Positions 7,451 to 50,224 are shown, counted from the first letter of the stretch. The stretch: DNA of 64,000 nucleotides from Candidatus Shapirobacteria bacterium (GCA_016188545.1 JACPHO010000006.1:693-64692), one strand, 5' to 3'. A program made the numbers and translations. The notes: generated from the letters alone by a model not told the origin.

Positions 7451-8905
7451 GTGGACAGTATCAACACCTCAATCAAAAGTCACACCGGACTCATCATTAT
7501 AATAGCTATCGCTGTTAGCTTTGTCTTCCCTGGGTTTGGCTCCCAACTAAAACCTTATCTCAACTCATTTTTAATTGCCATGATGTTCCTTAGCTGTCTT
7601 GACCTTAAGATATCCGAAATCGTTCATAGCCTAAGTGATTTCAAAAACATTTCTTTAATGCTCGTCATTGTTCACATGGTATCCCCCTTAATAATATTTT
7701 TACTTCAAGGCTACTTCTCCCCACCTGTATTTCTCGGGTTGATTATTTCTGCCACGATTCCTGCCGGCCGTAGCGCCGTCTTTTTATCACACATCTATGG
7801 TGGAGTTCCCATTAAAGCCCTAGTGTCTACCTCGGTCAGTAATTTTCTCAGCCCAATTACTGTTCCACTTTTTGTTTGGGTCTTTGCCCATACCGTCATC
7901 AAAATGGATCTTTTCGATATGAGTCGGACAATAGTTTATCTTGTAGCAATCCCTCTAATACTGGCGGTACTATTCGGTAAAACAAAGTATGGCCATAAAC
8001 TAAATGAATACTCACCCAGTATTTCGATAGTCATTTTATTCTTCATCATCTTGGGAATTATTTCGCCACTAAAAAATGTCGTCGTCGAAAATCTTCAACT
8101 ATCACTAATTCTGGGAGTCGTAATTTCTGTTCTGATCGTCGTCGACTTTTGCCTCGGCTACTTTTTAGGCAAAAATCACCCCGAGAAAGTTACCTACGCT
8201 ATCAGTAGTAGTTACAAAAACTACACCTTAGGAACACTTTTAGCCTTGACTGTTTTCACTCCTCTAGTCGCCCTACCATCAGTTATTTATACAGTCGTGT
8301 CTAATCTACTTTTGATTCCACTCCAAATGTTTCTTGCACCAAAAACTAAACCCAAGCCACACCACCATCACAAACGTCACAATGTTTTTCTCTTGGTGTC
8401 AGGGGTGTTTTTCGCCATAGTCCTCGCCTATAGTCCACTTCTCAACACTCTTCTTGAATACTTTTCCCCACACCCCCTCATTACTGCCTTCATTGCTGGT
8501 GTGCTGTTTGCCTCAACTTTTACAGTTGCCACAGGGGGCATACTGCTTATAAAGCTCAGTGAGCATTACTCCCCCCTCCTTCTGATTCTTTCCGCTGGTA
8601 TGGGTGCAGCTTTTTGCGACTATCTAATTTTCTCCCTCGTCAAAGACAAAGCTCCAACTCATGTCGCCCCTGTTTATAAAAACATGTTCAACCATAGTCA
8701 TCTCCATAAGATTCTCCATACCCATTACTTTGCTTGGACTTTACCAGTCATTGGCGCCATTGTTATGGCTTCACCTCTTCCTGATGAAATAGCTGTCAGT
8801 CTTTTGGGGATATCCAAGTTAACTGATACCAAATTTATACTTATAGCCCTAACCTCGCATCTAATCGGTATGGCCATCGTCGTTGCCGGTTCTAGACTAC
8901 TTTGA
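7451..8905 (+). CDS. Polytopic membrane protein; N-terminal bile acid:Na+ symporter (BASS)-like domain plus C-terminal 4-TM domain
   Basis: 484 aa; BASS-like signature ISATIPAGRSAVFLSHIYGGVPIKALVSTSVSNFLSPITVPL; His-rich linker KPKPHHHHKRH; more TM helices follow. Confidence 0.55.
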   Translation: MDSINTSIKSHTGLIIIIAIAVSFVFPGFGSQLKPYLNSFLIAMMFLSCLDLKISEIVHSLSDFKNISLMLVIVHMVSPLIIFLLQGYFSPPVFLGLIISATIPAGRSAVFLSHIYGGVPIKALVSTSVSNFLSPITVPLFVWVFAHTVIKMDLFDMSRTIVYLVAIPLILAVLFGKTKYGHKLNEYSPSISIVILFFIILGIISPLKNVVVENLQLSLILGVVISVLIVVDFCLGYFLGKNHPEKVTYAISSSYKNYTLGTLLALTVFTPLVALPSVIYTVVSNLLLIPLQMFLAPKTKPKPHHHHKRHNVFLLVSGVFFAIVLAYSPLLNTLLEYFSPHPLITAFIAGVLFASTFTVATGGILLIKLSEHYSPLLLILSAGMGAAFCDYLIFSLVKDKAPTHVAPVYKNMFNHSHLHKILHTHYFAWTLPVIGAIVMASPLPDEIAVSLLGISKLTDTKFILIALTSHLIGMAIVVAGSRLL

Positions 8906-8942
8906 CATGGTATTCTTAGTTGTTAATGTTTAATCTCTTCCC

Positions 8943-9260
8943 ATGAATATTCAGATCATTGGTGATAACTTTAACGTCTCTCAAAGCACTAAAGACCTTG
9001 TTGAAGAAAAAGTCGGTAAACGATTAGATAAACTCCTGACTAAGTTTGCCCCGGAAATGAAAATAGTCCTGATGCATATTGAAAAGGATAAATTTGACAA
9101 CCTTCACATCAACTTGGATATGAACCTCCCAGGTAAAGAACACATCTTTGCTAACACCTCACACAAAATTCTTGAGTCAGGACTAATTCACCTCGCTGAA
9201 GAAACAGAAAAACAAATTAAAAAATATAAAGACAAACTCGCTAACTATAGCCTGGGTTAA
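8943..9260 (+). CDS. hpf: Ribosome hibernation promoting factor (HPF/RaiA, short form)
   Basis: 105 aa; MNIQIIGDNFNVSQSTKDLVEEKVGKRLDKL matches the HPF/YfiA N-terminal pattern. Confidence 0.75.
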   Translation: MNIQIIGDNFNVSQSTKDLVEEKVGKRLDKLLTKFAPEMKIVLMHIEKDKFDNLHINLDMNLPGKEHIFANTSHKILESGLIHLAEETEKQIKKYKDKLANYSLG

Positions 9261-36437: not shown

Positions 36438-36839
36438 CTATTTTTTGTAAGTCCTCAGCCCCTCAATCATTTCAAAGTGTTTTAAATTATTAGTCACCAA
36501 TATCAAGTTTTTTTCAATTGCTGTTGCAGCGATAATTAAATCCATAATTGGCCGAGTCATACCTTTTTTGTAATGTTTTGATTGTATCAATGCATATGTT
36601 TTAGCTATTTTTTCGTCAAACGAAATTACGCTCATATTTCCAATTTCAATAAAACTTTTGTACCAAGATTCCTCGCTTCTTCCATACTTTCCACGATAAA
36701 CACCTTGAAAAAATTCTGCCGTTACCACACTACATATTTCACACTCAGGAATTTCGATACCTTTCAATATATTTGCCCTTTCATCCCCTCGGTACAAATC
36801 AATTAATACACCAGTGTCAAGTAAATATTTTTTTACCAT
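36438..36839 (-). CDS. vapC: PIN-domain toxin VapC
   Basis: 133 aa; LLDTGVLIDL with an acidic catalytic residue set; overlaps the upstream antitoxin gene. Confidence 0.75.
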   Translation of the reverse strand: MVKKYLLDTGVLIDLYRGDERANILKGIEIPECEICSVVTAEFFQGVYRGKYGRSEESWYKSFIEIGNMSVISFDEKIAKTYALIQSKHYKKGMTRPIMDLIIAATAIEKNLILVTNNLKHFEMIEGLRTYKK

Positions 36840-37096
36840 AGCCTCCTCTTTGTCTCACCATATTTATCCACCATTTTCTTAGCTTTTAATATATCCCGAG
36901 CCACTTTTTTACTCCCTTTTCCAAAAAAATCATCCCAACTAGGTTTTTTGACTATTTTTTTCTTGGATACTACAAATTCTAATCTAGATTTTTTACTATT
37001 TATATACACTCTTCTTTTACCCGATTCGGCAATTTTAATCAAATTAAAAAAATTTCTTCTGGCCTCTGTGGGAGTTACAATTAAATCAGTCATCAC
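36833..37096 (-). CDS. vapB: Antitoxin (Phd/YefM- or VapB-like)
   Basis: 87 aa; N-terminal VTPTEARRNFFNLIK; 7-nt overlap with vapC. Confidence 0.6.
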   Translation of the reverse strand: MMTDLIVTPTEARRNFFNLIKIAESGKRRVYINSKKSRLEFVVSKKKIVKKPSWDDFFGKGSKKVARDILKAKKMVDKYGETKRRLW

Positions 37097-37138
37097 TAAT
37101 TCTACAAAACATGTACACTTTTGTCAACATGTACATGT

Positions 37139-37714
37139 TTATTCACCCCTAATCTTCTTTTCCCACCTCCACACTGCCGTCCCCTTTTCAGGCACTACTG
37201 TTTCAAAGGTCTCGATATCAATTTCTGCCATTTCTTTCACTTTTCCGAAATGTAGAGCAAAGCCTGTGCAAGCTAAATAAAACTTATCATCGTATTCTTT
37301 GGCCTGTATCATAGTATTATCACCAGCACCTTTTCCATCAATCTTGTCAAACAATTCTGCTGTATCACAAAACAATCTAGCTGAATCAGCATTCAACAAA
37401 GCCTGATCAACATTTCGCTCTGCAGCGTAAGACATGTACAAACAAACCGCCCTGCTAACTCTATCCATTTTATCCAACTCGGTGATAATTGCGTTTGTTT
37501 CAGGAGCTACAACATCGTTATAATAACGAGCCATCAATGGTCTGTCACTGATAATTCTGCTTGCGCGGTCATCAGTCATCTCCCACCCTCGACTTACTTT
37601 ACTTAAAAAAGTAAGAGTGTCGTAGTCAAATTGCCCTTTCACAAAATTCTCCGCCCCTTTACTAATTTCAGTAAACTGAGCCCTGTGTTCGATATTTGTT
37701 GTCTTTTCTGTCAT
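37139..37714 (-). CDS. Hypothetical protein (cluster gene 4)
   Basis: 191 aa; no motif recognised. Confidence 0.4.
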   Translation of the reverse strand: MTEKTTNIEHRAQFTEISKGAENFVKGQFDYDTLTFLSKVSRGWEMTDDRASRIISDRPLMARYYNDVVAPETNAIITELDKMDRVSRAVCLYMSYAAERNVDQALLNADSARLFCDTAELFDKIDGKGAGDNTMIQAKEYDDKFYLACTGFALHFGKVKEMAEIDIETFETVVPEKGTAVWRWEKKIRGE

Positions 37715-37803
37715 AGTTATTTTTAATTTTTAACTACGAAAATTGTATCCTATAACAAAAACTACAGCTTGAGCTTGAAACCCCTTTTTCTGACTGTATA
37801 ATT

Positions 37804-38703
37804 CTATTCCTGACCAAACACAAACCCCTGTCCCTTTACGGTTCTTATCATTCTCTTTTCACCAACATCTCCAATTTTTTTCCTAATTTTAGACATTATT
37901 TGATCAATTGCCCAATCCGAATATTTTTCCTCTGTATCTTTGGACCAAAGTATCTCTGCAATTTGGTTTCGAGTTACCATGGTACTTTTATTTTTGAATA
38001 ATTCGTCCAGCACTTGATACTCTTGAAAACTCAAGTCAGTTTCCAAATCAATGTTTCCATTCAACCATAGTTTTCCATCTTTTGCTTCAATCCTATTCAA
38101 ACACTCCCCCAGTTTATTTCGCAACCACTCCTCAAACAGTGGCGAAAACACTCTTCCGTTATTTACCAACCCAGTCTTAGTTAAATACTCACCAAAGCCT
38201 TTTGGTTTTCCTCGCATTAAATCCATCAGTTGTGTTTGACTAGTTTCACTTAAGCACCCCCACAACATCTCAAACGTCGCTTCCACTACCCCATCCATTT
38301 CTTTTCTGCCCTCAATCGGTCGGTATTTACCATTTATATCAAACCACACTCGGTTTACTTGATAATACAAATAAAAATTTCCCAATAACTCTTTAACTCC
38401 AACCACCTCCTCACAACCTTGACCAAACACAAATTTAATTTTATTGGGATTCTGATGATAAAAAGTAACAAGTTTTCTCCATATCATCATTCTTTTTTCG
38501 TTTGTGATCGAATCAAGTGAATTAACCACCACTGTACCCTCATAATTATCCAAAACCGGTTCTACTTCTGACGGAATGTCCACTACCAACCAATTATTTT
38601 TCTTCCCCAGCTCTCTCATTTGATACGACCGACCGCTTTCAGGTAGCCCAATTACAAACACCACCCCATTATTTTCCAAAACCTTTTTTATTTCATCTTC
38701 CAT
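37804..38703 (-). CDS. P-loop-like NTPase domain fused to C-terminal OmpR/PhoB-type winged-helix DNA-binding domain (cluster gene 3)
   Basis: 299 aa; N-terminal VVFVIGLPESGRSYQM (degenerate Walker A, R in place of K); C-terminal LSFQEYQVLDELFKNKSTMVTRNQIAEILW...IRKKIG...IRTVKGQGFVF matches trans_reg_C. Confidence 0.55.
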   Translation of the reverse strand: MEDEIKKVLENNGVVFVIGLPESGRSYQMRELGKKNNWLVVDIPSEVEPVLDNYEGTVVVNSLDSITNEKRMMIWRKLVTFYHQNPNKIKFVFGQGCEEVVGVKELLGNFYLYYQVNRVWFDINGKYRPIEGRKEMDGVVEATFEMLWGCLSETSQTQLMDLMRGKPKGFGEYLTKTGLVNNGRVFSPLFEEWLRNKLGECLNRIEAKDGKLWLNGNIDLETDLSFQEYQVLDELFKNKSTMVTRNQIAEILWSKDTEEKYSDWAIDQIMSKIRKKIGDVGEKRMIRTVKGQGFVFGQE

Positions 38704-38709
38704 AGCTCA

Positions 38710-39939
38710 TTATACTGTTTTTATTTTCTTTCCACCGGCAAAAGCCACTCCATCCATCGGTCCTGGATTCCAGTGATCAGTAAACTCACTTTTTATCTTG
38801 GTTTTTTGCTTTTCATCTACTCCATCCAATACAGCATCAACAAAATCACCAACCGAGTGAAATGTACCCTCTGCCATCTCTTCATCCAATTGATTAGTCA
38901 TCCTAACAAGTTTTTGCCATTTATCAGGAGAATTGTATGTTTCCAGTAATGCCTCATCAAGATCCCCCGTGTACCAACTCAAAAATCCAAAGTTTATTGC
39001 CACCATTTTAAACCAACCAAAATTACCATTAGCGGCTTTTACCATTCTTTTTGATAAGGTTTTCATTATATCCAGCGACTCGCCTGCCCAACTTGCATTC
39101 TCCACCACCTCATTCCGCCACTTATCCTGCACTTCTGGTGCCATTCTCATTCCGAATTGAGTCATTACTGCCACTTTTCCGACATTGTAAGCCCATTCCC
39201 TCATTACCATATTAGCCAAATTCACTTCACCATTTTCAAATAACTCTTGTGCAACACCAGGAGAAAATATTGATTGTTCGTTTATCTCTATTAAATAAGT
39301 AACCACTTCTCTACCAGATAACATTAATATTTGTGACCCTTGGTTGTTTACCAAAATAGGGTCCATGTCATTTTTTAATAATTTTGCTCGCATATATATT
39401 TCTAGATCAGTGCCAGTGTTCTCGATCCCCAATTTATTATTTATTTCTTTCACCGTGCCCACACTTGTCTTTAGATCAGAAATTGACATCACTTCCACCC
39501 CGTTTTGTATAATATCCACCCGAGGATAATCCGCTAAATTACTCCCCACCACCTCATAACCATCACCTAGCTGGTCTTGCAATATGGTTATCAGCTGATT
39601 AACATTCCCGATATCATCTACCATCAAATCAATATCTGCATTTCGAGTTGAATCAAGTTTTTCAGTTAACAATCCACCCTCAGTAACCATATCCGAACAT
39701 ATCGGCACAGTCGAATCCAAAACTGGTAACACATCATCTCTTTCAATCAACATAGCCATACCCCCATATATTAAGAATTGATCATGGGTTTCTGACAGCA
39801 ACACTTCACTTACTTTTGAAAATGTTTCATTTTCATGCAAAGCTTTATATCTGTTCTCTTGGTTATAAGTCAAACCAGTTGCAATACTTATCTGAGGTTG
39901 CAAAACATCAACAAGTACTACCATTCCATCATTGTACAT
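38710..39939 (-). CDS. Hypothetical protein (cluster gene 2)
   Basis: 409 aa; no motif recognised; 6 nt upstream of gene 3. Confidence 0.45.
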   Translation of the reverse strand: MYNDGMVVLVDVLQPQISIATGLTYNQENRYKALHENETFSKVSEVLLSETHDQFLIYGGMAMLIERDDVLPVLDSTVPICSDMVTEGGLLTEKLDSTRNADIDLMVDDIGNVNQLITILQDQLGDGYEVVGSNLADYPRVDIIQNGVEVMSISDLKTSVGTVKEINNKLGIENTGTDLEIYMRAKLLKNDMDPILVNNQGSQILMLSGREVVTYLIEINEQSIFSPGVAQELFENGEVNLANMVMREWAYNVGKVAVMTQFGMRMAPEVQDKWRNEVVENASWAGESLDIMKTLSKRMVKAANGNFGWFKMVAINFGFLSWYTGDLDEALLETYNSPDKWQKLVRMTNQLDEEMAEGTFHSVGDFVDAVLDGVDEKQKTKIKSEFTDHWNPGPMDGVAFAGGKKIKTV

Positions 39940-40817
39940 TACCCCTTACACTTCGGACATTGTTTTTTCTTTTTAATAAAAAAATTTCCACAGCCATTAC
40001 ACCTCTCCAATCTCGAATCCAAACTTTCACTACTAACTACAGGAGCCATCGAAAACAAACTATTAAATGGTGACATCGTACCCAAAAGTGATGTGTTCGA
40101 TACTCCATGATTTCCTCCCATTATTTGAAAACCATTTCTCGCCATAAACATTTCCAATTGTGCCCCCCACCAAATATCCCCACCTCTTTTGGCGACTTCC
40201 GACTCCGGGCTGTTTCTAAACCTGGCAATCATCTCTTCGGCCAAATGTTTTGTTAACTGATCTTTGCTATTCCTGATCTCTTCCCAAATTTCCGAATTTC
40301 CAAACGCCTTTTCCATCATATCCCAAAGCTCACCTTCACTCTTAACATCGACTGCCAACGCCTGTTCTCTCAAGTCCTCAAGATTTCTAATTTCATCCAT
40401 TACCACTGCACCTTTTTCTTGTAGTTTTCTCACCATTTCCAACAATTCTTCTGGTGATTCATTTTTCAACACGATTCCTCGACATTCCATGGTTACCTCT
40501 TGAAATCTTCCAGTGACTATAGCTACAACTACCCGGCTTCCATCTTTATACACACTCCTTCCTAATTCTGGACTAGCCCAAACGACATAGTTGTGACCCA
40601 TCATTGCCAGCCTTCTCATATTCTGCATCCCCTCATTTTCTGCTCTACCCAAAACGCTATTCTTATCACAAGGAAAATCGGGCTCTCCATTGGCCTTGAA
40701 CCTCAGCATGTACGGGACAATTCTGTCTTTTAGTTCCGCCTTTCTATTCTCTACAAATGCCGCTGCCAATTCATCGTTTGGCGACCTACTCTCAACCAAT
40801 CTTTTTACTCTATCCAT
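39939..40817 (-). CDS. Hypothetical protein with C-terminal zinc ribbon (cluster gene 1)
   Basis: 292 aa; C-terminus CNGCGNFFIKKKKQCPKCKG; stop overlaps the start of gene 2. Confidence 0.45.
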   Translation of the reverse strand: MDRVKRLVESRSPNDELAAAFVENRKAELKDRIVPYMLRFKANGEPDFPCDKNSVLGRAENEGMQNMRRLAMMGHNYVVWASPELGRSVYKDGSRVVVAIVTGRFQEVTMECRGIVLKNESPEELLEMVRKLQEKGAVVMDEIRNLEDLREQALAVDVKSEGELWDMMEKAFGNSEIWEEIRNSKDQLTKHLAEEMIARFRNSPESEVAKRGGDIWWGAQLEMFMARNGFQIMGGNHGVSNTSLLGTMSPFNSLFSMAPVVSSESLDSRLERCNGCGNFFIKKKKQCPKCKG

Positions 40818-40828
40818 ATTTTTCTCTT

Positions 40829-40900
40829 GAACGAAGGCGGCGCTTTACCGTAGCGGCACTGCGAGGGAATTCCTGCCTACCGGCAGGCAGGTCACCCTAC
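40829..40900 (-). ncRNA. GC-rich structured leader/hairpin element upstream of cluster gene 1
   Basis: GAACGAAGGCGGCGCTTTACCGTAGCGGCACTGCGAGGGAATTCCTGCCTACCGGCAGGCAGGTCACC: strong CCTGCC..GGCAGG hairpin and CGCT..AGCG hairpin in otherwise AT-rich DNA; 12 nt from the ATG. Confidence 0.35.
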
Positions 40901-40913
40901 TTCAAAAATAATT

Positions 40914-41366
40914 TTATCCTTCTTCTTTTCGACTTAACATAAATAAATAATCTGACAAACGGTTGATGTAAGCTAGCAATTTTGGGCTGACATCTTCTTT
41001 TTTAGACAAAGCCACCAATCTTCTTTCCGCTCGACGACATACCGTTCTGACCCAATTTATTTTTTTGGCATTTTTATTTTTAAAAATCAAAAAATTTGTA
41101 ATTGGTTTTAATTTCTTTTCAATCTTTTTTATTTCTTTTTCAAATTGTTCTATTCTTAAATCATATTTCATACTTCTTACTTCGTAACCCAACTCTCCCA
41201 TAATTTCATAAATATCTCGCGCCAAATCTTTTTGACCCACAATCATTAATAGCGCCTGTAACTCGTCAAGTGTTCCCACTGTCTCCAAAAGCTCACTATC
41301 TTTAGCCATTACTTTTCCCAAGAATCGGCTCTTCCCATCATCACCAGTTTTCGTTACCACACTCAT
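40914..41366 (-). CDS. ATP:cob(I)alamin adenosyltransferase, PduO-type
   Basis: 150 aa; [10 protein letters not shown]-terminus and [11 protein letters not shown]-terminal motif. Confidence 0.7.
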
Positions 41367-41409: not shown

Positions 41410-43977
41410 TTACGAACACTTAGAGTATCCACAATAGCCATTGGAACATTTAAAACACCCTTCTTCAGCATAAAGTGGTGAGCCACAGTCGGGACAGGAG
41501 CTGAATTTACTCTCACCCTCGGTCTGCTTGACTCGTAGTTCCGCTAATATTTGCTTACCAGAAGTTGTCGTGACTTGTGTTTGTTCTTTTGGTTTACCCG
41601 TCGTAGCGTCAGCGGAGGCGGGCAGATCTAATTTTAGTTTTTCTTCCGCAAACATGTTCAGTTGTTCACCTCGAGAAATCTCTAAAATAGCCTTGCCAAC
41701 TGCATCAAACATACTCAGAACAGCATTGTTTCCCATCCCTACTTTCTGTCCACATGATACTCCCACCAGTTCGTCTGCCACCTCGTCTAAAGTTGCTCCA
41801 TATTTTAGTGCGAGGGATGCTAGTCGTCCAGTAACCTCAGACGCCCCAGCTAGGTAACCACCTGATTTTCCCAAATTCACAAACACCTCAACCGGTCCAT
41901 CCCCCTCCTCAAAAAATACCGAGGTATATACCTTACCCACATCACAAGTTTTTCGCAATCGTACTCCCCGAGCTGCCTCTGGTGTTTTTTTCTTGGCTTT
42001 TAAGTGCAACACACTTAAGTGCGACTTTCCATTACCCTCAACTGCAACAGTCTTTTCTTTAACAGGAGCAATCACTTCTTTCTCACGACTACCACTACGA
42101 TAGATAGTAATTCCCTTAGTGCCCAGAGCATAAGCCAATCGGTATGCTACCCTCACATCTTCCACAGTAGCTTCCTTAGGAAAGTTAATAGTCTTACTAA
42201 CTGCATTGTCAGTATATTTTTGAAAAACTGCTTGGATTTTGACATGCCATTCTGGGGAAATTTCCATGGCAGTCCGATAGATATTTACAATATCATCAGG
42301 AAGGCCTTCGATTCCGGTTAGTTTTCCTCCATTTTTTACTATTCTGTCCAAAAGTTGCTCATTATAGAGATCCCTTCTTTTTAATTCAGCCACAAATACC
42401 GGATTCATCATATAAAGAGTCTTCCCTTCGACAGTATTTTTTTGGTACCCCAGCGAAAATGCTGGTTCTACTCCCGAAGATGCATCAGCAATCATCGAGA
42501 TGGTTCCGGTTGGCGCTATGGTCGTCAGTGCCATATTTCGAGGACGGTAATCAGTATTAGCAAATACTGACACATCCCATGCTGGGAACACTCCTCGGGT
42601 CTTTGCTAACTCAACAGAAGCAATCTTTGTCTCATCTTGGACAAACTTCATTATTTTTTCAGCCCAAGCAGCACCCTCGTCAGAGTCATAACGAATTCCC
42701 AGTTTGAAAAGCATATCCGCAAAGCCCATCAGTCCCAAACCCACCCGTCGGGTTTTACTAACCATTTCTCGAATTTTGACCACTGGGAATTGATTCACCT
42801 CCACCACATTATCCAAAAAATGAATTGACTCGTGGACCACTCTCTTAAGTTCGTTCCAGTCCAAATCTCCAGTTTCTAGTTTCTGGTTTCTAGTTTCTGT
42901 TTCAAAATTTGATTTTACAAATTTTGAAACATTAATCGAACCCAAATTACAGGCATCATAAGGCAAAAGTGGTTGTTCACCACAAGGATTAGTTGCCTCA
43001 ATACGACCCATTGAAGGTACTGGATTACTGCTTGATTCATTCATCCGATCGATAAAGACTAGACCTGGATCACCATACTGCCATGCCAGTCGTGTTACCA
43101 AATTAAATACTTTATAAGCATTCAATTTTATAGTCACCTCACCCGTTCGGGGATTAATTAAGTTGTATCCTTCACCTTCGTTAGTTGCCTTAGCCCAATC
43201 GTATAGTTTCTTAGTCCACAACTCAATTTCTCGAAGTCGAGCATCCACGTCGCGAGAGGCTTCCGCTATCCTAATTTTTTCAACAATATCTTCTGGAAAG
43301 CTGTCATCAGTCACAAATTTTTTATCACTATCAATCTTCTCCATAAAAACATTTGTCACCGCCAGAGAGATATTAAAATTAGTCAGCGAATACTCATCTA
43401 ACTTCACCACCGAGAAACGTAGTACATCCGGGTGATCTATCGACAGCATGCCCATGTTTGCCCCCCGTCGAACTCCACCCTGTTTAATCTGGGATGTCAC
43501 ATCGTTGTACGCCTGCATGAAGGATACGGGGCCAACTGTAGTGCCGCCAGAAGTGGCAATATAGTCGCCAAAAGGTCGTAGTCGGTTAAAAGAAAATCCT
43601 GTTCCCCCCCCACTTTTATGAATCTTAGCCATATCAGTCATGGTTTCCAAAATCCCGCTCATCGAATCCTCTATAGGTAGCACAAAACAAGCCGATAACT
43701 GCTGATGTTTTTTACCGGCATTTACCAAGCAAGGAGTGTTGGGGAAAAACTTCTGTTCCGCCATCAAGTCATAAAAGACCTGCGCCTGTGCTTCGACATC
43801 CACCTCACCCTTTCCGAAAACTGCATCTCCCTTGGCTAAGTTGTAAGCCACTCTCCAAAAAATATCCTTAACCGATTCAACGAGCTTTCCCGATTCATCC
43901 TTCATTCCATACCGTGTTTGAGTAATGTACTTGGCATTGTCAGACAATAGCGGTTCAATTAGGTTTTGGTTATTCAT
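41410..43977 (-). CDS. nrdJ: Class II (adenosylcobalamin-dependent) ribonucleotide reductase
   Basis: 855 aa; FFPNTPCLVNAG, CGEQPLLPYDACNLGSINVSKF, C-terminal Cys-rich zinc ribbon. Confidence 0.85.
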   Translation of the reverse strand: MNNQNLIEPLLSDNAKYITQTRYGMKDESGKLVESVKDIFWRVAYNLAKGDAVFGKGEVDVEAQAQVFYDLMAEQKFFPNTPCLVNAGKKHQQLSACFVLPIEDSMSGILETMTDMAKIHKSGGGTGFSFNRLRPFGDYIATSGGTTVGPVSFMQAYNDVTSQIKQGGVRRGANMGMLSIDHPDVLRFSVVKLDEYSLTNFNISLAVTNVFMEKIDSDKKFVTDDSFPEDIVEKIRIAEASRDVDARLREIELWTKKLYDWAKATNEGEGYNLINPRTGEVTIKLNAYKVFNLVTRLAWQYGDPGLVFIDRMNESSSNPVPSMGRIEATNPCGEQPLLPYDACNLGSINVSKFVKSNFETETRNQKLETGDLDWNELKRVVHESIHFLDNVVEVNQFPVVKIREMVSKTRRVGLGLMGFADMLFKLGIRYDSDEGAAWAEKIMKFVQDETKIASVELAKTRGVFPAWDVSVFANTDYRPRNMALTTIAPTGTISMIADASSGVEPAFSLGYQKNTVEGKTLYMMNPVFVAELKRRDLYNEQLLDRIVKNGGKLTGIEGLPDDIVNIYRTAMEISPEWHVKIQAVFQKYTDNAVSKTINFPKEATVEDVRVAYRLAYALGTKGITIYRSGSREKEVIAPVKEKTVAVEGNGKSHLSVLHLKAKKKTPEAARGVRLRKTCDVGKVYTSVFFEEGDGPVEVFVNLGKSGGYLAGASEVTGRLASLALKYGATLDEVADELVGVSCGQKVGMGNNAVLSMFDAVGKAILEISRGEQLNMFAEEKLKLDLPASADATTGKPKEQTQVTTTSGKQILAELRVKQTEGESKFSSCPDCGSPLYAEEGCFKCSNGYCGYSKCS

Positions 43978-44441
43978 TTTTTATTTGAAAAATTTTTAAT
44001 AATGTCTTCGAATTCTTTAATTTCAGTTATATTGTTATAGATAGTCGCGAATCTGATATAGGCCACCGGGTCTGTTCGTTTAAGAATATCCATCACTAGT
44101 TTTCCAATTTCACGGCTAGGTATCTCCACGCTTTCCCAGTTCAGTAGCTTCATCTCAATTTCATCGATCAGTTTTTGTCTTTCGTCTTCTTCTATTCGCC
44201 ACAAAGCCTTCTCAAAACACTTTTCTAACTTTTCTCTCCGGTAGTCTTCTATATGTCCATCTTTTTTAATTACTTTCAGCTCAATATTGCCAAGCTTTTC
44301 GTAGGTAGTAAACCGCTTATTACACTTAAGGCACTCTCTTCGCCGTCGGGTTGCTTTTCCTTCAAACGCATCCCGGGATTCCAGGACATTCGATTCATCA
44401 TGATTACAATAAGGACACAACATATAGTGGATGTCATTCAC
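43974..44441 (-). CDS. nrdR: Transcriptional repressor NrdR
   Basis: Zinc ribbon CPYCNHD...CLKCNKRF plus ATP-cone; start probably at the internal MLCPYC; 4-nt overlap with nrdJ. Confidence 0.85.
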   Translation of the reverse strand: MNDIHYMLCPYCNHDESNVLESRDAFEGKATRRRRECLKCNKRFTTYEKLGNIELKVIKKDGHIEDYRREKLEKCFEKALWRIEEDERQKLIDEIEMKLLNWESVEIPSREIGKLVMDILKRTDPVAYIRFATIYNNITEIKEFEDIIKNFSNKK

Positions 44442-45032: not shown

Positions 45033-45153
45033 ATGTACATTATAACTGTACAGTTTAAATCTGGCAACAACTAAATAGCATATATTTCAAAATAGACTTA
45101 CCATTTAGAACCCGTCTATAACAAACAAAAGGTAGTGTATAATAAAACGAAAT

Positions 45154-45537
45154 ATGACACAAAGTAGGATCATTCCCGAAGCAAAGATCTGGCCACTTGA
45201 AAAATTCCAACCTGCCTTTCCCAACTTCCCCATCGAAGTCAAAGACGGGCAAGTTGCCATCAACTCCGACTCGGTCATCTGTACCGACATGGTAGTTTGC
45301 GCCACCCATCGGGTTACTTTAGTTCCCGACCTCACCTCCACACTAACGGCTGCCAAACCAATACTTGAGAGAGTCTGTCCAATTCCAGAATGTCAAACTC
45401 GTGCAATAGTTAGGCCAAAGCATTATGTTACCAGTGCTGACACACGACAATCCTGGAACCACATAAAAAAAGAGGTCGCAGCCAGCCATCTCAGAATACA
45501 CGGGCCTGCTGGTAAAACTCACCCACCCAAACCATAG
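45154..45537 (+). CDS. Hypothetical protein (GC-richer patch)
   Basis: 127-aa ORF with an AT-rich -10-like box upstream; the overlapping minus-strand ORFs are considered spurious. Confidence 0.3.
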   Translation: MTQSRIIPEAKIWPLEKFQPAFPNFPIEVKDGQVAINSDSVICTDMVVCATHRVTLVPDLTSTLTAAKPILERVCPIPECQTRAIVRPKHYVTSADTRQSWNHIKKEVAASHLRIHGPAGKTHPPKP

Positions 45538-45549
45538 TATCGCACTTCA

Positions 45550-48966: not shown

Positions 48967-49515
48967 ATGTTATTCTATACAAAATTGTATATGATAAATA
49001 AACTAGATATTTTATTAAAACAGCCTCAAAAAATATATCACACCAATGATTTACGAATTTTGTGGAACATCACCAAACTTACTACTCTCTACCAAACTAT
49101 ATCCCGGCTTATTAAAAAAGGTGTTTTAATTAAAATACACAAAGGGCTATATTGCACCATTCCCATTACCAATCTTGACCCCATCGAACTTGGATCTCGT
49201 CTTATTAATCGTTTTTGCTACCTCACCACCGAAACCATTCTCGCTCAAAGTGGAACCATCAATCAATCACCAAACAAAATTACGTTCGTTTCCGACATTT
49301 CCAAAAAAATTACTGTCGGCAATAACACTTATTTATACCGGCAGTTAAATGATAAATATTTATACAATAGTATTGGTATTAATCTACAACCAAACGGAGT
49401 ATTAGTTGCTTCAACCGCCAGAGCCGCTGCCGATGTGCTCTATTTTCAACCCAATTACCACTTCGACAACAATAGTATCATTATTCAAAAAGGAGTTTAT
49501 GATAGCCAACCGTAG
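48967..49515 (+). CDS. AbiEi-family antitoxin/transcriptional regulator (type IV TA)
   Basis: 182 aa; N-terminal wHTH with the characteristic ...LIKKGVLIKIHKGLY motif. Confidence 0.6.
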   Translation: MLFYTKLYMINKLDILLKQPQKIYHTNDLRILWNITKLTTLYQTISRLIKKGVLIKIHKGLYCTIPITNLDPIELGSRLINRFCYLTTETILAQSGTINQSPNKITFVSDISKKITVGNNTYLYRQLNDKYLYNSIGINLQPNGVLVASTARAAADVLYFQPNYHFDNNSIIIQKGVYDSQP

Positions 49516-50224
49516 AGTCGATATTATTCATAAAGTTCATTTATTACGAGTCTTAACTAAAATTGTTGATAATCCAATTTTATCTCAGTCACTATATTTT
49601 AAAGGTGGAACTTGCGCATCAATGCAAAATATTTTAGATAGGTTTTCTGTTGATTTAGACTTTGATATTAATCCTAAATCAAACGAAAACACTTTAAGAA
49701 CCGAATTTCACACCATTTTCAAAAAACTAGATTTCACCCTCGATCAAGAAAGTCAAAATGCTTTAGAATTTTTTCTCAAATATAAAAACGATCCAAATCA
49801 GCGTAACACTCTCAAAATCGATGCTCTAAACTTTCAGGTTAAGTCAAATTTATATGCTCCAGTTTTTCTTCCCGAAATCAACCGAATTGTAAATTGTCAA
49901 ACCAAAGAGACAATTTTTGCCAACAAATTGGTTGCCATCAAAGATCGTTTTGACAAACACGAATCAATCGCCTGCCGTGACTTGTATGACATTCATCATT
50001 TTTTCATGATTGGTTTGCAATATCGATCAGAAATCATTGTTGAAAGGACAAACCTTTCTCCTCAAAGATATTTTAAATATTTAATTGATTTCATCAAATC
50101 CAAGATTACACAAACCTTAATCGACCAGGACCTCAACACTTTACTATCACCAGAGTCATTTAATAAAATCCGCAAAATCCTCAAACCTGAAGTGCTCCTC
50201 CTATTGCAAAATCAAGAAAAATAA
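49499..50224 (+). CDS. AbiEii/AbiGii-family nucleotidyltransferase toxin (DUF1814)
   Basis: Start ATG 49499 preceded by AAGGAG; YFKGGTCASMQNILDRFSVDLDFDI matches the GGT...RxSxDxD NTase motif; overlaps AbiEi by 17 nt. Confidence 0.65.
   Translation: MIANRRVDIIHKVHLLRVLTKIVDNPILSQSLYFKGGTCASMQNILDRFSVDLDFDINPKSNENTLRTEFHTIFKKLDFTLDQESQNALEFFLKYKNDPNQRNTLKIDALNFQVKSNLYAPVFLPEINRIVNCQTKETIFANKLVAIKDRFDKHESIACRDLYDIHHFFMIGLQYRSEIIVERTNLSPQRYFKYLIDFIKSKITQTLIDQDLNTLLSPESFNKIRKILKPEVLLLLQNQEK

Follow-up and report, generated by a model that had tools for sequence, protein, structure and literature searches.

Bacteria of the Candidate Phyla Radiation (CPR, or Patescibacteria) cannot make B12, and many of them depend on a B12-dependent ribonucleotide reductase for their DNA precursors. 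Among RNA elements, the closest described relative of the one treated here is the env8HyCbl class-II riboswitch, where cobalamin stabilises a kissing loop between L5 and L13 and where the ribosome-binding site (RBS) lies in the L13 hairpin (PMC5028336). Among proteins, BtuM (PMC6072759) and MMADHC (PMC12501144) provide examples of axial ligation of the cobalt by a cysteine. The locus described here lies in a 64-kb stretch of DNA from a Candidatus Shapirobacteria bacterium (GCA_016188545.1, JACPHO010000006.1:693-64692). This whole stretch is referred to as the window, and all coordinates are positions in it. At 37139-40912 it carries a GC-rich structured leader followed by four co-directional genes, P1 to P4, which an earlier note, made from the sequence alone, took for one novel defence or stress system. 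Comparison with related loci (labelled L001-L061) makes it likely that the locus is instead a B12 regulon module with a decayed riboswitch, to which orphan genes have been appended. The riboswitch class itself is already known; what is new is the regulated protein family and the degenerate switch within the B12 regulon. The conserved part of the locus consists of the following features:

43974..44441, minus strand: nrdR, a Zn-ribbon and ATP-cone repressor, first gene of the conserved unit (Pfam Zn_ribbon_NrdR and ATP-cone)
41410..43977, minus strand: nrdJ, a B12-dependent class II ribonucleotide reductase (Pfam Ribonuc_red_lgN/lgC and TSCPD)
40914..41366, minus strand: pduO-type ATP:cob(I)alamin adenosyltransferase (PF01923, E 3.8e-34)
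40818-40913: spacer between pduO and P1, 96 nt
40834..40911, minus strand: most likely a relic AdoCbl-II (RF01689) cobalamin riboswitch aptamer, recognised by the clade model R1; this is the "GC-rich structured leader" of the earlier note
40872..40891, minus strand: 20-nt GC hairpin (CCUGCCUGCCGGUAGGCAGG) in the aptamer L4 loop (R1 alignment: model positions [4] to [24])
39939..40817, minus strand: P1, 292 aa, ending in CNGCGN...CPKCKG, conserved and without a Pfam family

The leader is homologous to the AdoCbl-II cobalamin riboswitch and is a degraded member of this known family, not a new element. The spacer at 40818-40913 folds with -34.4 kcal/mol (z = -2.9; one of 200 shuffles was equally good), and long blocks of it are shared with the orthologous spacers, which agrees with the structured leader described in the earlier note. 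Rfam gave no match to it at E<=1 (10 kb), at E<=10 (201 nt) or at gathering score (64 kb); it falls below the RF01689 gathering score of 36.5 bits, while the orthologous leaders reach 41.3-55.6 bits (L008 55.6, L003 52.4, L002 41.3 and L011 41.3). A clade-specific covariance model, R1, was made from 24 relatives and has 64 columns with the RNA helices P4, P5 and P6. In its alignment the share of paired cells is 93.6%, and sliding the partners lowers it to 34-52%; with changes on both sides at four pairs, the helices have covariation support. With R1 the window leader scores 30.9 bits (E 1.5e-9) and is the sole significant match in the 64 kb, while intact copies, including those on which the model was not trained, score 52-82 bits. 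The window leader can be aligned base for base with the orthologous spacers through P4, L5/P5 and the P6 stem. The core helices P4, P5 and P6 are all paired in it, and L5 and the stems are those of the relatives. Two other identities were tried for the leader and rejected, namely a guanidine-II or other small riboswitch (Rfam was blank) and an intrinsic terminator (no U-tract follows the hairpin).

The window copy is damaged at several of the places that characterise the family. Its L4 is interrupted by the 20 nt of the hairpin at 40872-40891, which occurs as a single copy in the window. The B12 box (J6-3), AGYCCGAG, has become AGCGCCG followed by CCUU; the box is invariant in the 24 relatives, which is partly a consequence of the search pattern used to collect them. 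On its 3' side about 8-10 nt are missing; in the R1 alignment six model positions are deleted. In 50 of 51 distinct relative leaders a hairpin with a CGAGCA-type loop overlaps the RBS or the start codon, at a position equivalent to P13/L13 of env8. The window has the loop CGUUCA without a 5' stem strand, and the regulatory hairpin is thus lost. Because this equivalent of the env8 L13 is missing, the window leader is most likely a relic that no longer senses B12. A GC hairpin nearly identical to the inserted one is found in L032 and L002, where it is located in the linker 3' of the aptamer, and the window leader therefore looks like a rearrangement of parts typical of the clade.

Two further features were seen in the relatives. 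The start codon sometimes lies inside the regulatory hairpin, as in the GCAUGAA of L023, L028 and L037, and in many Shapirobacteria copies the linker that joins aptamer and regulatory hairpin holds an additional GC hairpin, which is variable.

As an alternative, the window leader might still function as a regulatory RNA, be it a riboswitch whose architecture or ligand has changed or a site bound by a protein. Its 5' two-thirds hardly differ from those of intact relatives, the fold of the spacer is better than that of its shuffles, and the 5'-proximal pairing of P1, GAAGG/CCUUC, as read from the sequence, can still form. However, the inserted GC hairpin supplies most of this folding energy, the score is 20-50 bits under that of every intact copy, and Rfam is blank even at the most permissive setting. 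The copy has a changed AGYCCGAG, which is the best conserved element of the family, and no CGAGCA hairpin. We regard a working leader as unlikely, and a relic remains the preferred reading.

The unit to which P1 and the leader belong is the upstream one, nrdR-nrdJ-pduO, and not P2-P4. The P1 family comprises 71 representatives at 50% clustering, and genomic contexts were read for members that are 26-68% identical to window P1. The order nrdR-nrdJ-pduO-riboswitch-P1 recurs in all of them, and the part from pduO through the riboswitch to P1 is found in L002, L003, L006, L008, L011, L012 and L014. The spacer between pduO and the P1 homologue is 82-121 nt, with the exception of L013, where the contig begins inside the spacer. 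What lies downstream of P1 is variable, with small open reading frames (ORFs) and then thyX, dcd, tmk and genes for dihydrofolate reductase (DHFR), phosphoribosyl pyrophosphate (PRPP) synthetase and serine hydroxymethyltransferase (SHMT). In the closest relatives of P1 (67-68% identity) a Band_7 gene comes directly after it. P2-P4 are missing after P1 in eight of nine independent contexts, including those closest relatives; the loci that lack them there are L003, L006, L008, L011, L012, L013 and L014. P1 is thus a conserved gene of the lineage with variable neighbours, the very pattern that the earlier note had named as speaking against its four-gene system. Its placement of the cluster beside nrdR, nrdJ and pduO held for all three genes.

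In the window, P1 is probably expressed by read-through from nrdR-nrdJ-pduO. A promoter-like site, TTGACT-18-TATAGT, lies upstream of nrdR at 44469-44440, and from pduO to P4 the minus strand showed no terminator-like site.

A profile search of genome contigs with the P1 alignment A3 returned no relatives, and a DNA pattern of the riboswitch core was hence used. With an exact 24-nt core pattern and one genome per species, 47 loci were obtained, nearly all from CPR bacteria, and the counts describe this riboswitch variant only. The pduO gene is immediately upstream in 33 of them, and a gene of the P1 superfamily is downstream in 38, belonging to family A in 18 loci, family B in 13 and family C in seven. 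The three families are connected by hhalign (A-B: 98% probability, E 2e-13; A-C: 96%, E 3e-9), and families B and C have no Pfam model. In CPR, the genes that follow this riboswitch variant thus mostly belong to the P1 superfamily. The other downstream genes encode zinc-ribbon-ended unknowns, DUF4430 proteins (two loci), one prepilin-like protein and one truncated ORF. Members of the superfamily lie directly 3' of a class-II cobalamin riboswitch, as a rule after nrdJ-pduO, and so does window P1, in the order nrdJ-pduO-(relic)-P1. Literature searches gave no paper on cobalamin riboswitches or the P1 family in CPR.

Some of the loci deserve separate mention. In two Saccharibacteria-labelled loci (L031 2830-3285 and L044 5285-5695) the slot of P1 is taken by a small membrane-anchored DUF4430 protein (PF14478, E 1.6e-10). 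Five Saccharibacteria-type loci (L026, L041, L045, L051 and L030) have proteins of 314-516 aa without Pfam match behind the same riboswitch variant, most of them with a terminal zinc ribbon and an S-S-S-C-P or G-G-C motif. By hhalign no homology between these proteins and P1 could be demonstrated beyond the zinc ribbon. L026, L041 and L045 also have a conserved neighbour in common, of 320-380 aa and divergently transcribed. In L002, the other Shapirobacteria genome that has P2 and P3, an ORF of 137 aa (8578-8991), with several CxxC pairs and a C-terminal hydrophobic helix, is found between pduO and the riboswitch. Many representative records of metagenome-assembled genomes named 'uncultured Gammaproteobacteria' (L017, L020, L021, L023 and others) contain the CPR-type nrdR-nrdJ-pduO-riboswitch-P1 order and are probably mislabelled, and L047, a 5-kb contig filed as Candidatus Methanoperedens, has the CPR module and is probably a binning contaminant.

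P1 gave no significant match in Pfam, NCBIfam, PADLOC, PHROGs or the PDB sequences. An AlphaFold model from 35 sequences has a predicted local distance difference test score (pLDDT) of 89.4 and a predicted template modelling score (pTM) of 0.79. The model is confident and predicts a PAS-like alpha/beta domain at the N-terminus, a C4 zinc ribbon at the C-terminus and a helical domain, and it did not match any solved structure. The superfamily is recognised by a full-length profile match and three sequence features: an SP(P)G..Y strand motif, the motif GG-x-H/C-G, and a zinc ribbon of the form CxxC...CPxC at the C-terminus. Window P1, the seed of A1, has all of these, together with all the invariant residues (E23, S82, R150, G238, C273, C287 and C290). 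Its version of the second motif is GGNHG. The His/Cys position of this motif is a histidine in 27 and a cysteine in eight of 35 family A sequences, and it is always a cysteine in families B and C. Such an alternation would suit a ligand of a metal or a cofactor. P1 evolves much faster than its neighbours, with 40% identity between the window (39939-40817) and L002 (9098-9973); the corresponding value is 58% for PduO and 78% for NrdJ, and the range over PduO, NrdJ, NrdR, NusG and L11 is 58-88%.

Since P1 is under riboswitch control in the relatives, is adjacent to PduO and has this His/Cys position, a role in cobalamin metabolism suggests itself. We tentatively propose, at somewhat less than even confidence, that P1 is a protein that binds or processes cobalamin, perhaps by way of the position in the GG(N)H/C-G motif that is always His or Cys, and that it acts ahead of PduO and NrdJ. 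By the same token, superfamily A/B/C may be a so far unrecognised protein of the CPR/Patescibacteria that binds, traffics or processes cobalamin, and the main target of the cobalamin riboswitch in these B12-auxotrophic bacteria with reduced genomes, a suggestion that we likewise offer as a possibility rather than as the expected outcome.

The main rival to a cobalamin-handling P1 is a B12-independent backup for an NrdJ that lacks its cofactor, for instance in the supply or salvage of deoxynucleotides, in which case P1 would not handle B12 at all. P1 would be switched off by B12 in the relatives, as expected of a backup, and several of the genes near it belong to deoxynucleotide metabolism (thyX, dcd, tmk, DHFR, SHMT and PRPP synthetase). 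In other bacteria B12-independent reductases likewise follow B12 riboswitches, and in the comparative genomics of Rodionov and Vitreschak from 2003, B12-independent isozymes are reportedly placed behind them. On the other hand, family C members and the other proteins with a terminal zinc ribbon that follow this riboswitch are encoded away from nucleotide genes, and P1 resembles neither kinases nor reductases nor nucleotide-binding folds. DUF4430, a domain that we take to be linked to B12 binding, can occupy this slot in Saccharibacteria. A backup function appears improbable, and a protein that binds or processes cobalamin is preferred for P1.

By analogy with env8, binding of cobalamin in the relatives would lock the loop-loop contact and turn translation of P1 off, and P1 would be produced when B12 is scarce. 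It would then bind or process cobalamin and supply PduO and NrdJ. In the window genome the switch would have decayed through the L4 hairpin, the altered B12 box, the 3' deletion and the loss of the regulatory hairpin. P1 itself is intact there, and it would most likely be expressed without B12 control. P2, P3 and P4 are lineage-restricted orphans, which would have been added to P1 within a 6.6-kb variable segment. This segment is the stretch between P1 and the Band_7 gene of the window and contains P2, P3, P4, VapBC, an EamA transporter, a TrmB regulator, a TPR protein and small ORFs. The features next to P1 are:

38710..39939, minus strand: P2, 409 aa (404 aa if the start is 39924), a Candidatus Shapirobacteria orphan
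37804..38703, minus strand: P3, 299 aa, with an N-terminal domain (residues 1-215) and an OmpR/PhoB winged helix
about 37816-38043, minus strand: winged helix of P3, residues 221-296 (PF00486)
37139..37714, minus strand: P4, 191 aa, an ORFan matching only its own sequence
36833-37096, minus strand: VapB-like antitoxin, an 87-aa ORF (Phd/YefM-like, E 0.004, below the Pfam cutoff)
36438-36839, minus strand: PIN-domain VapC (PIN E 3e-14)

The four ORFs reported in the earlier note are thus all present, on the minus strand, with the sizes given there. Proteins identical to P1-P4 are found at NCBI (HYV64_04975 to HYV64_04990), and the Logan assembly of SRR12113420 holds an identical contig. The translational coupling proposed for P1-P2-P3 depends in part on the choice of start codon. 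The stop codon of P1 overlaps the first ATG of P2 (TAATG), and P2 and P3 are separated by 6 nt. An alternative P2 start, the ATG at 39924, lies 15 nt downstream and fits both the 404-aa P2 at NCBI and the P2 of L002; with this start the gap between P1 and P2 is 14 nt. Between P3 and P4 there are 89 nt.

P2 was found in two clusters among 5.8 billion, both from Shapirobacteria, and in the same set P4 matched only itself. Window P2 is 64% identical to that of L002 over its full length, and P3 is 72.5% identical to the partial copy in L002. Because these identities fall between those of PduO and NrdJ, P2 and P3 are real genes under purifying selection. P4 is the least certain gene of the four. 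P2 and P3 occur in only one of the 47 loci, L036, which is the L002 contig, and their distribution is patchy relative to the P1 tree. According to hhalign, none of P2, P3 and P4 is related to the P1 superfamily or to another of the three. The description that fits them best is that of lineage-specific orphans added to a presumed transcription unit of P1, and not that of a conserved set of partners of P1; they may have an accessory role.

P2 and P4, like P1, had no significant match in Pfam, NCBIfam, PADLOC or PHROGs, in line with the earlier note, where no family could be named for them, and the PDB sequences held no match for either. P3 is probably a DNA-binding regulator. Its residues 221-296 match Trans_reg_C (PF00486) with 54.4 bits (E 1.3e-14; cutoff 26.2) and also match the DNA-binding domains of response regulators in the PDB. 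The earlier note had described P3 as a degenerate P-loop NTPase fused to an OmpR/PhoB winged helix, and the winged helix stood the test. The NTPase part comes down to a GLPESGRS motif, where an R replaces the K of the Walker A consensus GxxxxGK[ST]; among profiles no match to the N-terminus was significant, the best being nSTAND3 (E 0.12, 12.5 bits against a cutoff of 27.2).

It has also been considered that P2 might be a minimal nucleotidyltransferase that forms a toxin-antitoxin-like or signalling pair with the regulator P3. A nucleotidyltransferase-like motif, hG[GS]...DxD, can be read in P2 as FLIYGGMAM...RNADIDLMVDD and is conserved in L002, and a nucleotidyltransferase toxin of AbiEii type is encoded elsewhere in the window. 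However, neither NTP_transf nor AbiEii profiles matched the isolated region, even with the limit at E<=10, P2 has no PDB sequence match, and its AlphaFold2 model (pLDDT 38.8) is unusable for judging the fold. We find this pair quite unlikely.

The setting of the segment had been described as flanked by toxin-antitoxin (TA) modules. For VapC and for a Phd and ParE/RelE pair at 44.5-45.0 kb, beyond nrdR, this was corroborated, while the match of the VapB-like protein is weak. The VapB-like ORF overlaps the vapC gene by 7 nt, which is the type II arrangement of VapBC, and it has a promoter-like site of its own (TTGACA-17-TAGAAT at 37127-37099). No att-like repeats were found flanking the variable segment, and no mobility genes were found among the features of the P2-P4/VapBC part.

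It is very unlikely that all four genes work together as a novel system of defence or stress response in which the leader serves as the regulatory RNA, and for P1 and the leader this is already largely refuted. In its favour, the genes are co-directional and tightly spaced with TA modules on both sides, all four proteins lack an annotated family, P2-P4 lie within the variable segment and P1-P2-P3 adjoin one another in L002 too. Against it, P1 and the leader are kept with nrdJ-pduO and without P2-P4 in nearly every other genome, the leader derives from a cobalamin riboswitch, PADLOC-DB 2.0 gave nothing significant (no match for P1, P2 and P4, and for P3 only PDC-S39 over the winged helix, E 0.015), relatives were sought without success for P2, the P3 N-terminus and P4 in IMG/VR, for the first two also in GenBank phage records, and for P2 in JGI metagenome contigs as well, att-like repeats are missing, and the base composition of the cluster is unremarkable.

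A few observations weigh against the reading of the locus as a B12 module with a decayed switch and appended orphans. L002 has an intact riboswitch ahead of P1-P2-P3, and P2 and P3 may therefore be functionally tied to P1 there. The leader, with its L4 insertion and changed B12 box, could conceivably still bind something or have another role; its 5' part is better preserved than neutral decay predicts and overlaps no other identified element. B12-independent substitutes can also sit among riboswitch-repressed genes, and the exact 24-nt pattern restricts the locus counts to a single riboswitch variant.

If the reading is true, this lineage has lost B12 control of P1, and the orphan genes P2-P4 have joined the operon of P1. 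The P1 superfamily would then be a testable candidate for a CPR step in the acquisition or processing of the cofactor. The window would be a natural example of riboswitch decay, where an insertion has occurred and the B12 box and the expression platform have been lost while the regulated gene is intact, and such an example is useful for understanding how this kind of regulation gets lost. The locus also illustrates that a neat row of co-directional unknown genes next to TA modules need not be a defence system and may instead be a core operon to which orphans were added.

Several other elements near the cluster were noted. A tandem, partly palindromic repeat, ACATGTAC...ACATGTAC (AACATGTACACTTTT / AACATGTACATGTTT), at 37108-37140 overlaps the promoter-like site of the VapB-like gene and is plausibly an antitoxin operator. 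The AbiEii-family nucleotidyltransferase toxin (PF08843) is encoded on the plus strand at about 48991-50224, as mapped from L001 1-949, and is preceded by an overlapping ORF of 174 aa; three modules of TA type (VapBC, Phd/ParE and AbiE-like) are thus found within 14 kb. Between the phd gene and secE, the region 45040-45545 has 48% G+C in an otherwise AT-rich genome, with overlapping ORFs on both strands. The gene called there encodes 127 aa (45154-45537, plus strand) without a Pfam match; Rfam did not match the region, and neither strand gave a folding signal (z = 0.30 and -0.34).

Compared with the AdoCbl-II/env8HyCbl riboswitches (RF01689), the leader has the same P4 stem with a GUGAAAUUC-type loop, the same P5 with a small loop and the same P6 stem, and it is positioned directly before a start codon; in the relatives the downstream hairpin is at the place of P13/L13 in env8. 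The window copy differs by its score below the Rfam threshold, the L4 hairpin, the altered B12 box, the deletion 3' of P6 and the absence of the regulatory hairpin, while the whole CPR clade differs by a shortened P1/P2 region of the RNA, an often present extra linker hairpin and the L13 loop CGAGCA. Like BtuM, MMACHC/CblC, MMADHC and the DUF4430 proteins, P1 appears as an accessory of a B12 regulon, riboswitch-controlled in the relatives and encoded beside a PduO-type adenosyltransferase, which corresponds in bacteria to the MMAB step after CblC. Its single invariant His-or-Cys position recalls the ligation of cobalt by cysteine in BtuM and MMADHC. Unlike these proteins, to which it has no similarity in sequence or fold, P1 is soluble, has a C4 zinc ribbon and is predicted to have a fold without a match in the PDB. 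P3 resembles the OmpR/PhoB regulators (PF00486) in its residues 221-296, which are well over the threshold, and differs from them in having no receiver domain and an unmatched N-terminus of 215 residues. As in defence islands and other TA-flanked clusters, the P2-P4 variable segment lies beside VapBC and has the ParE/Phd pair upstream. Unlike in them, no known defence families, mobility genes, flanking repeats or viral relatives were found, and the first gene of the cluster is a core gene of the B12 module.

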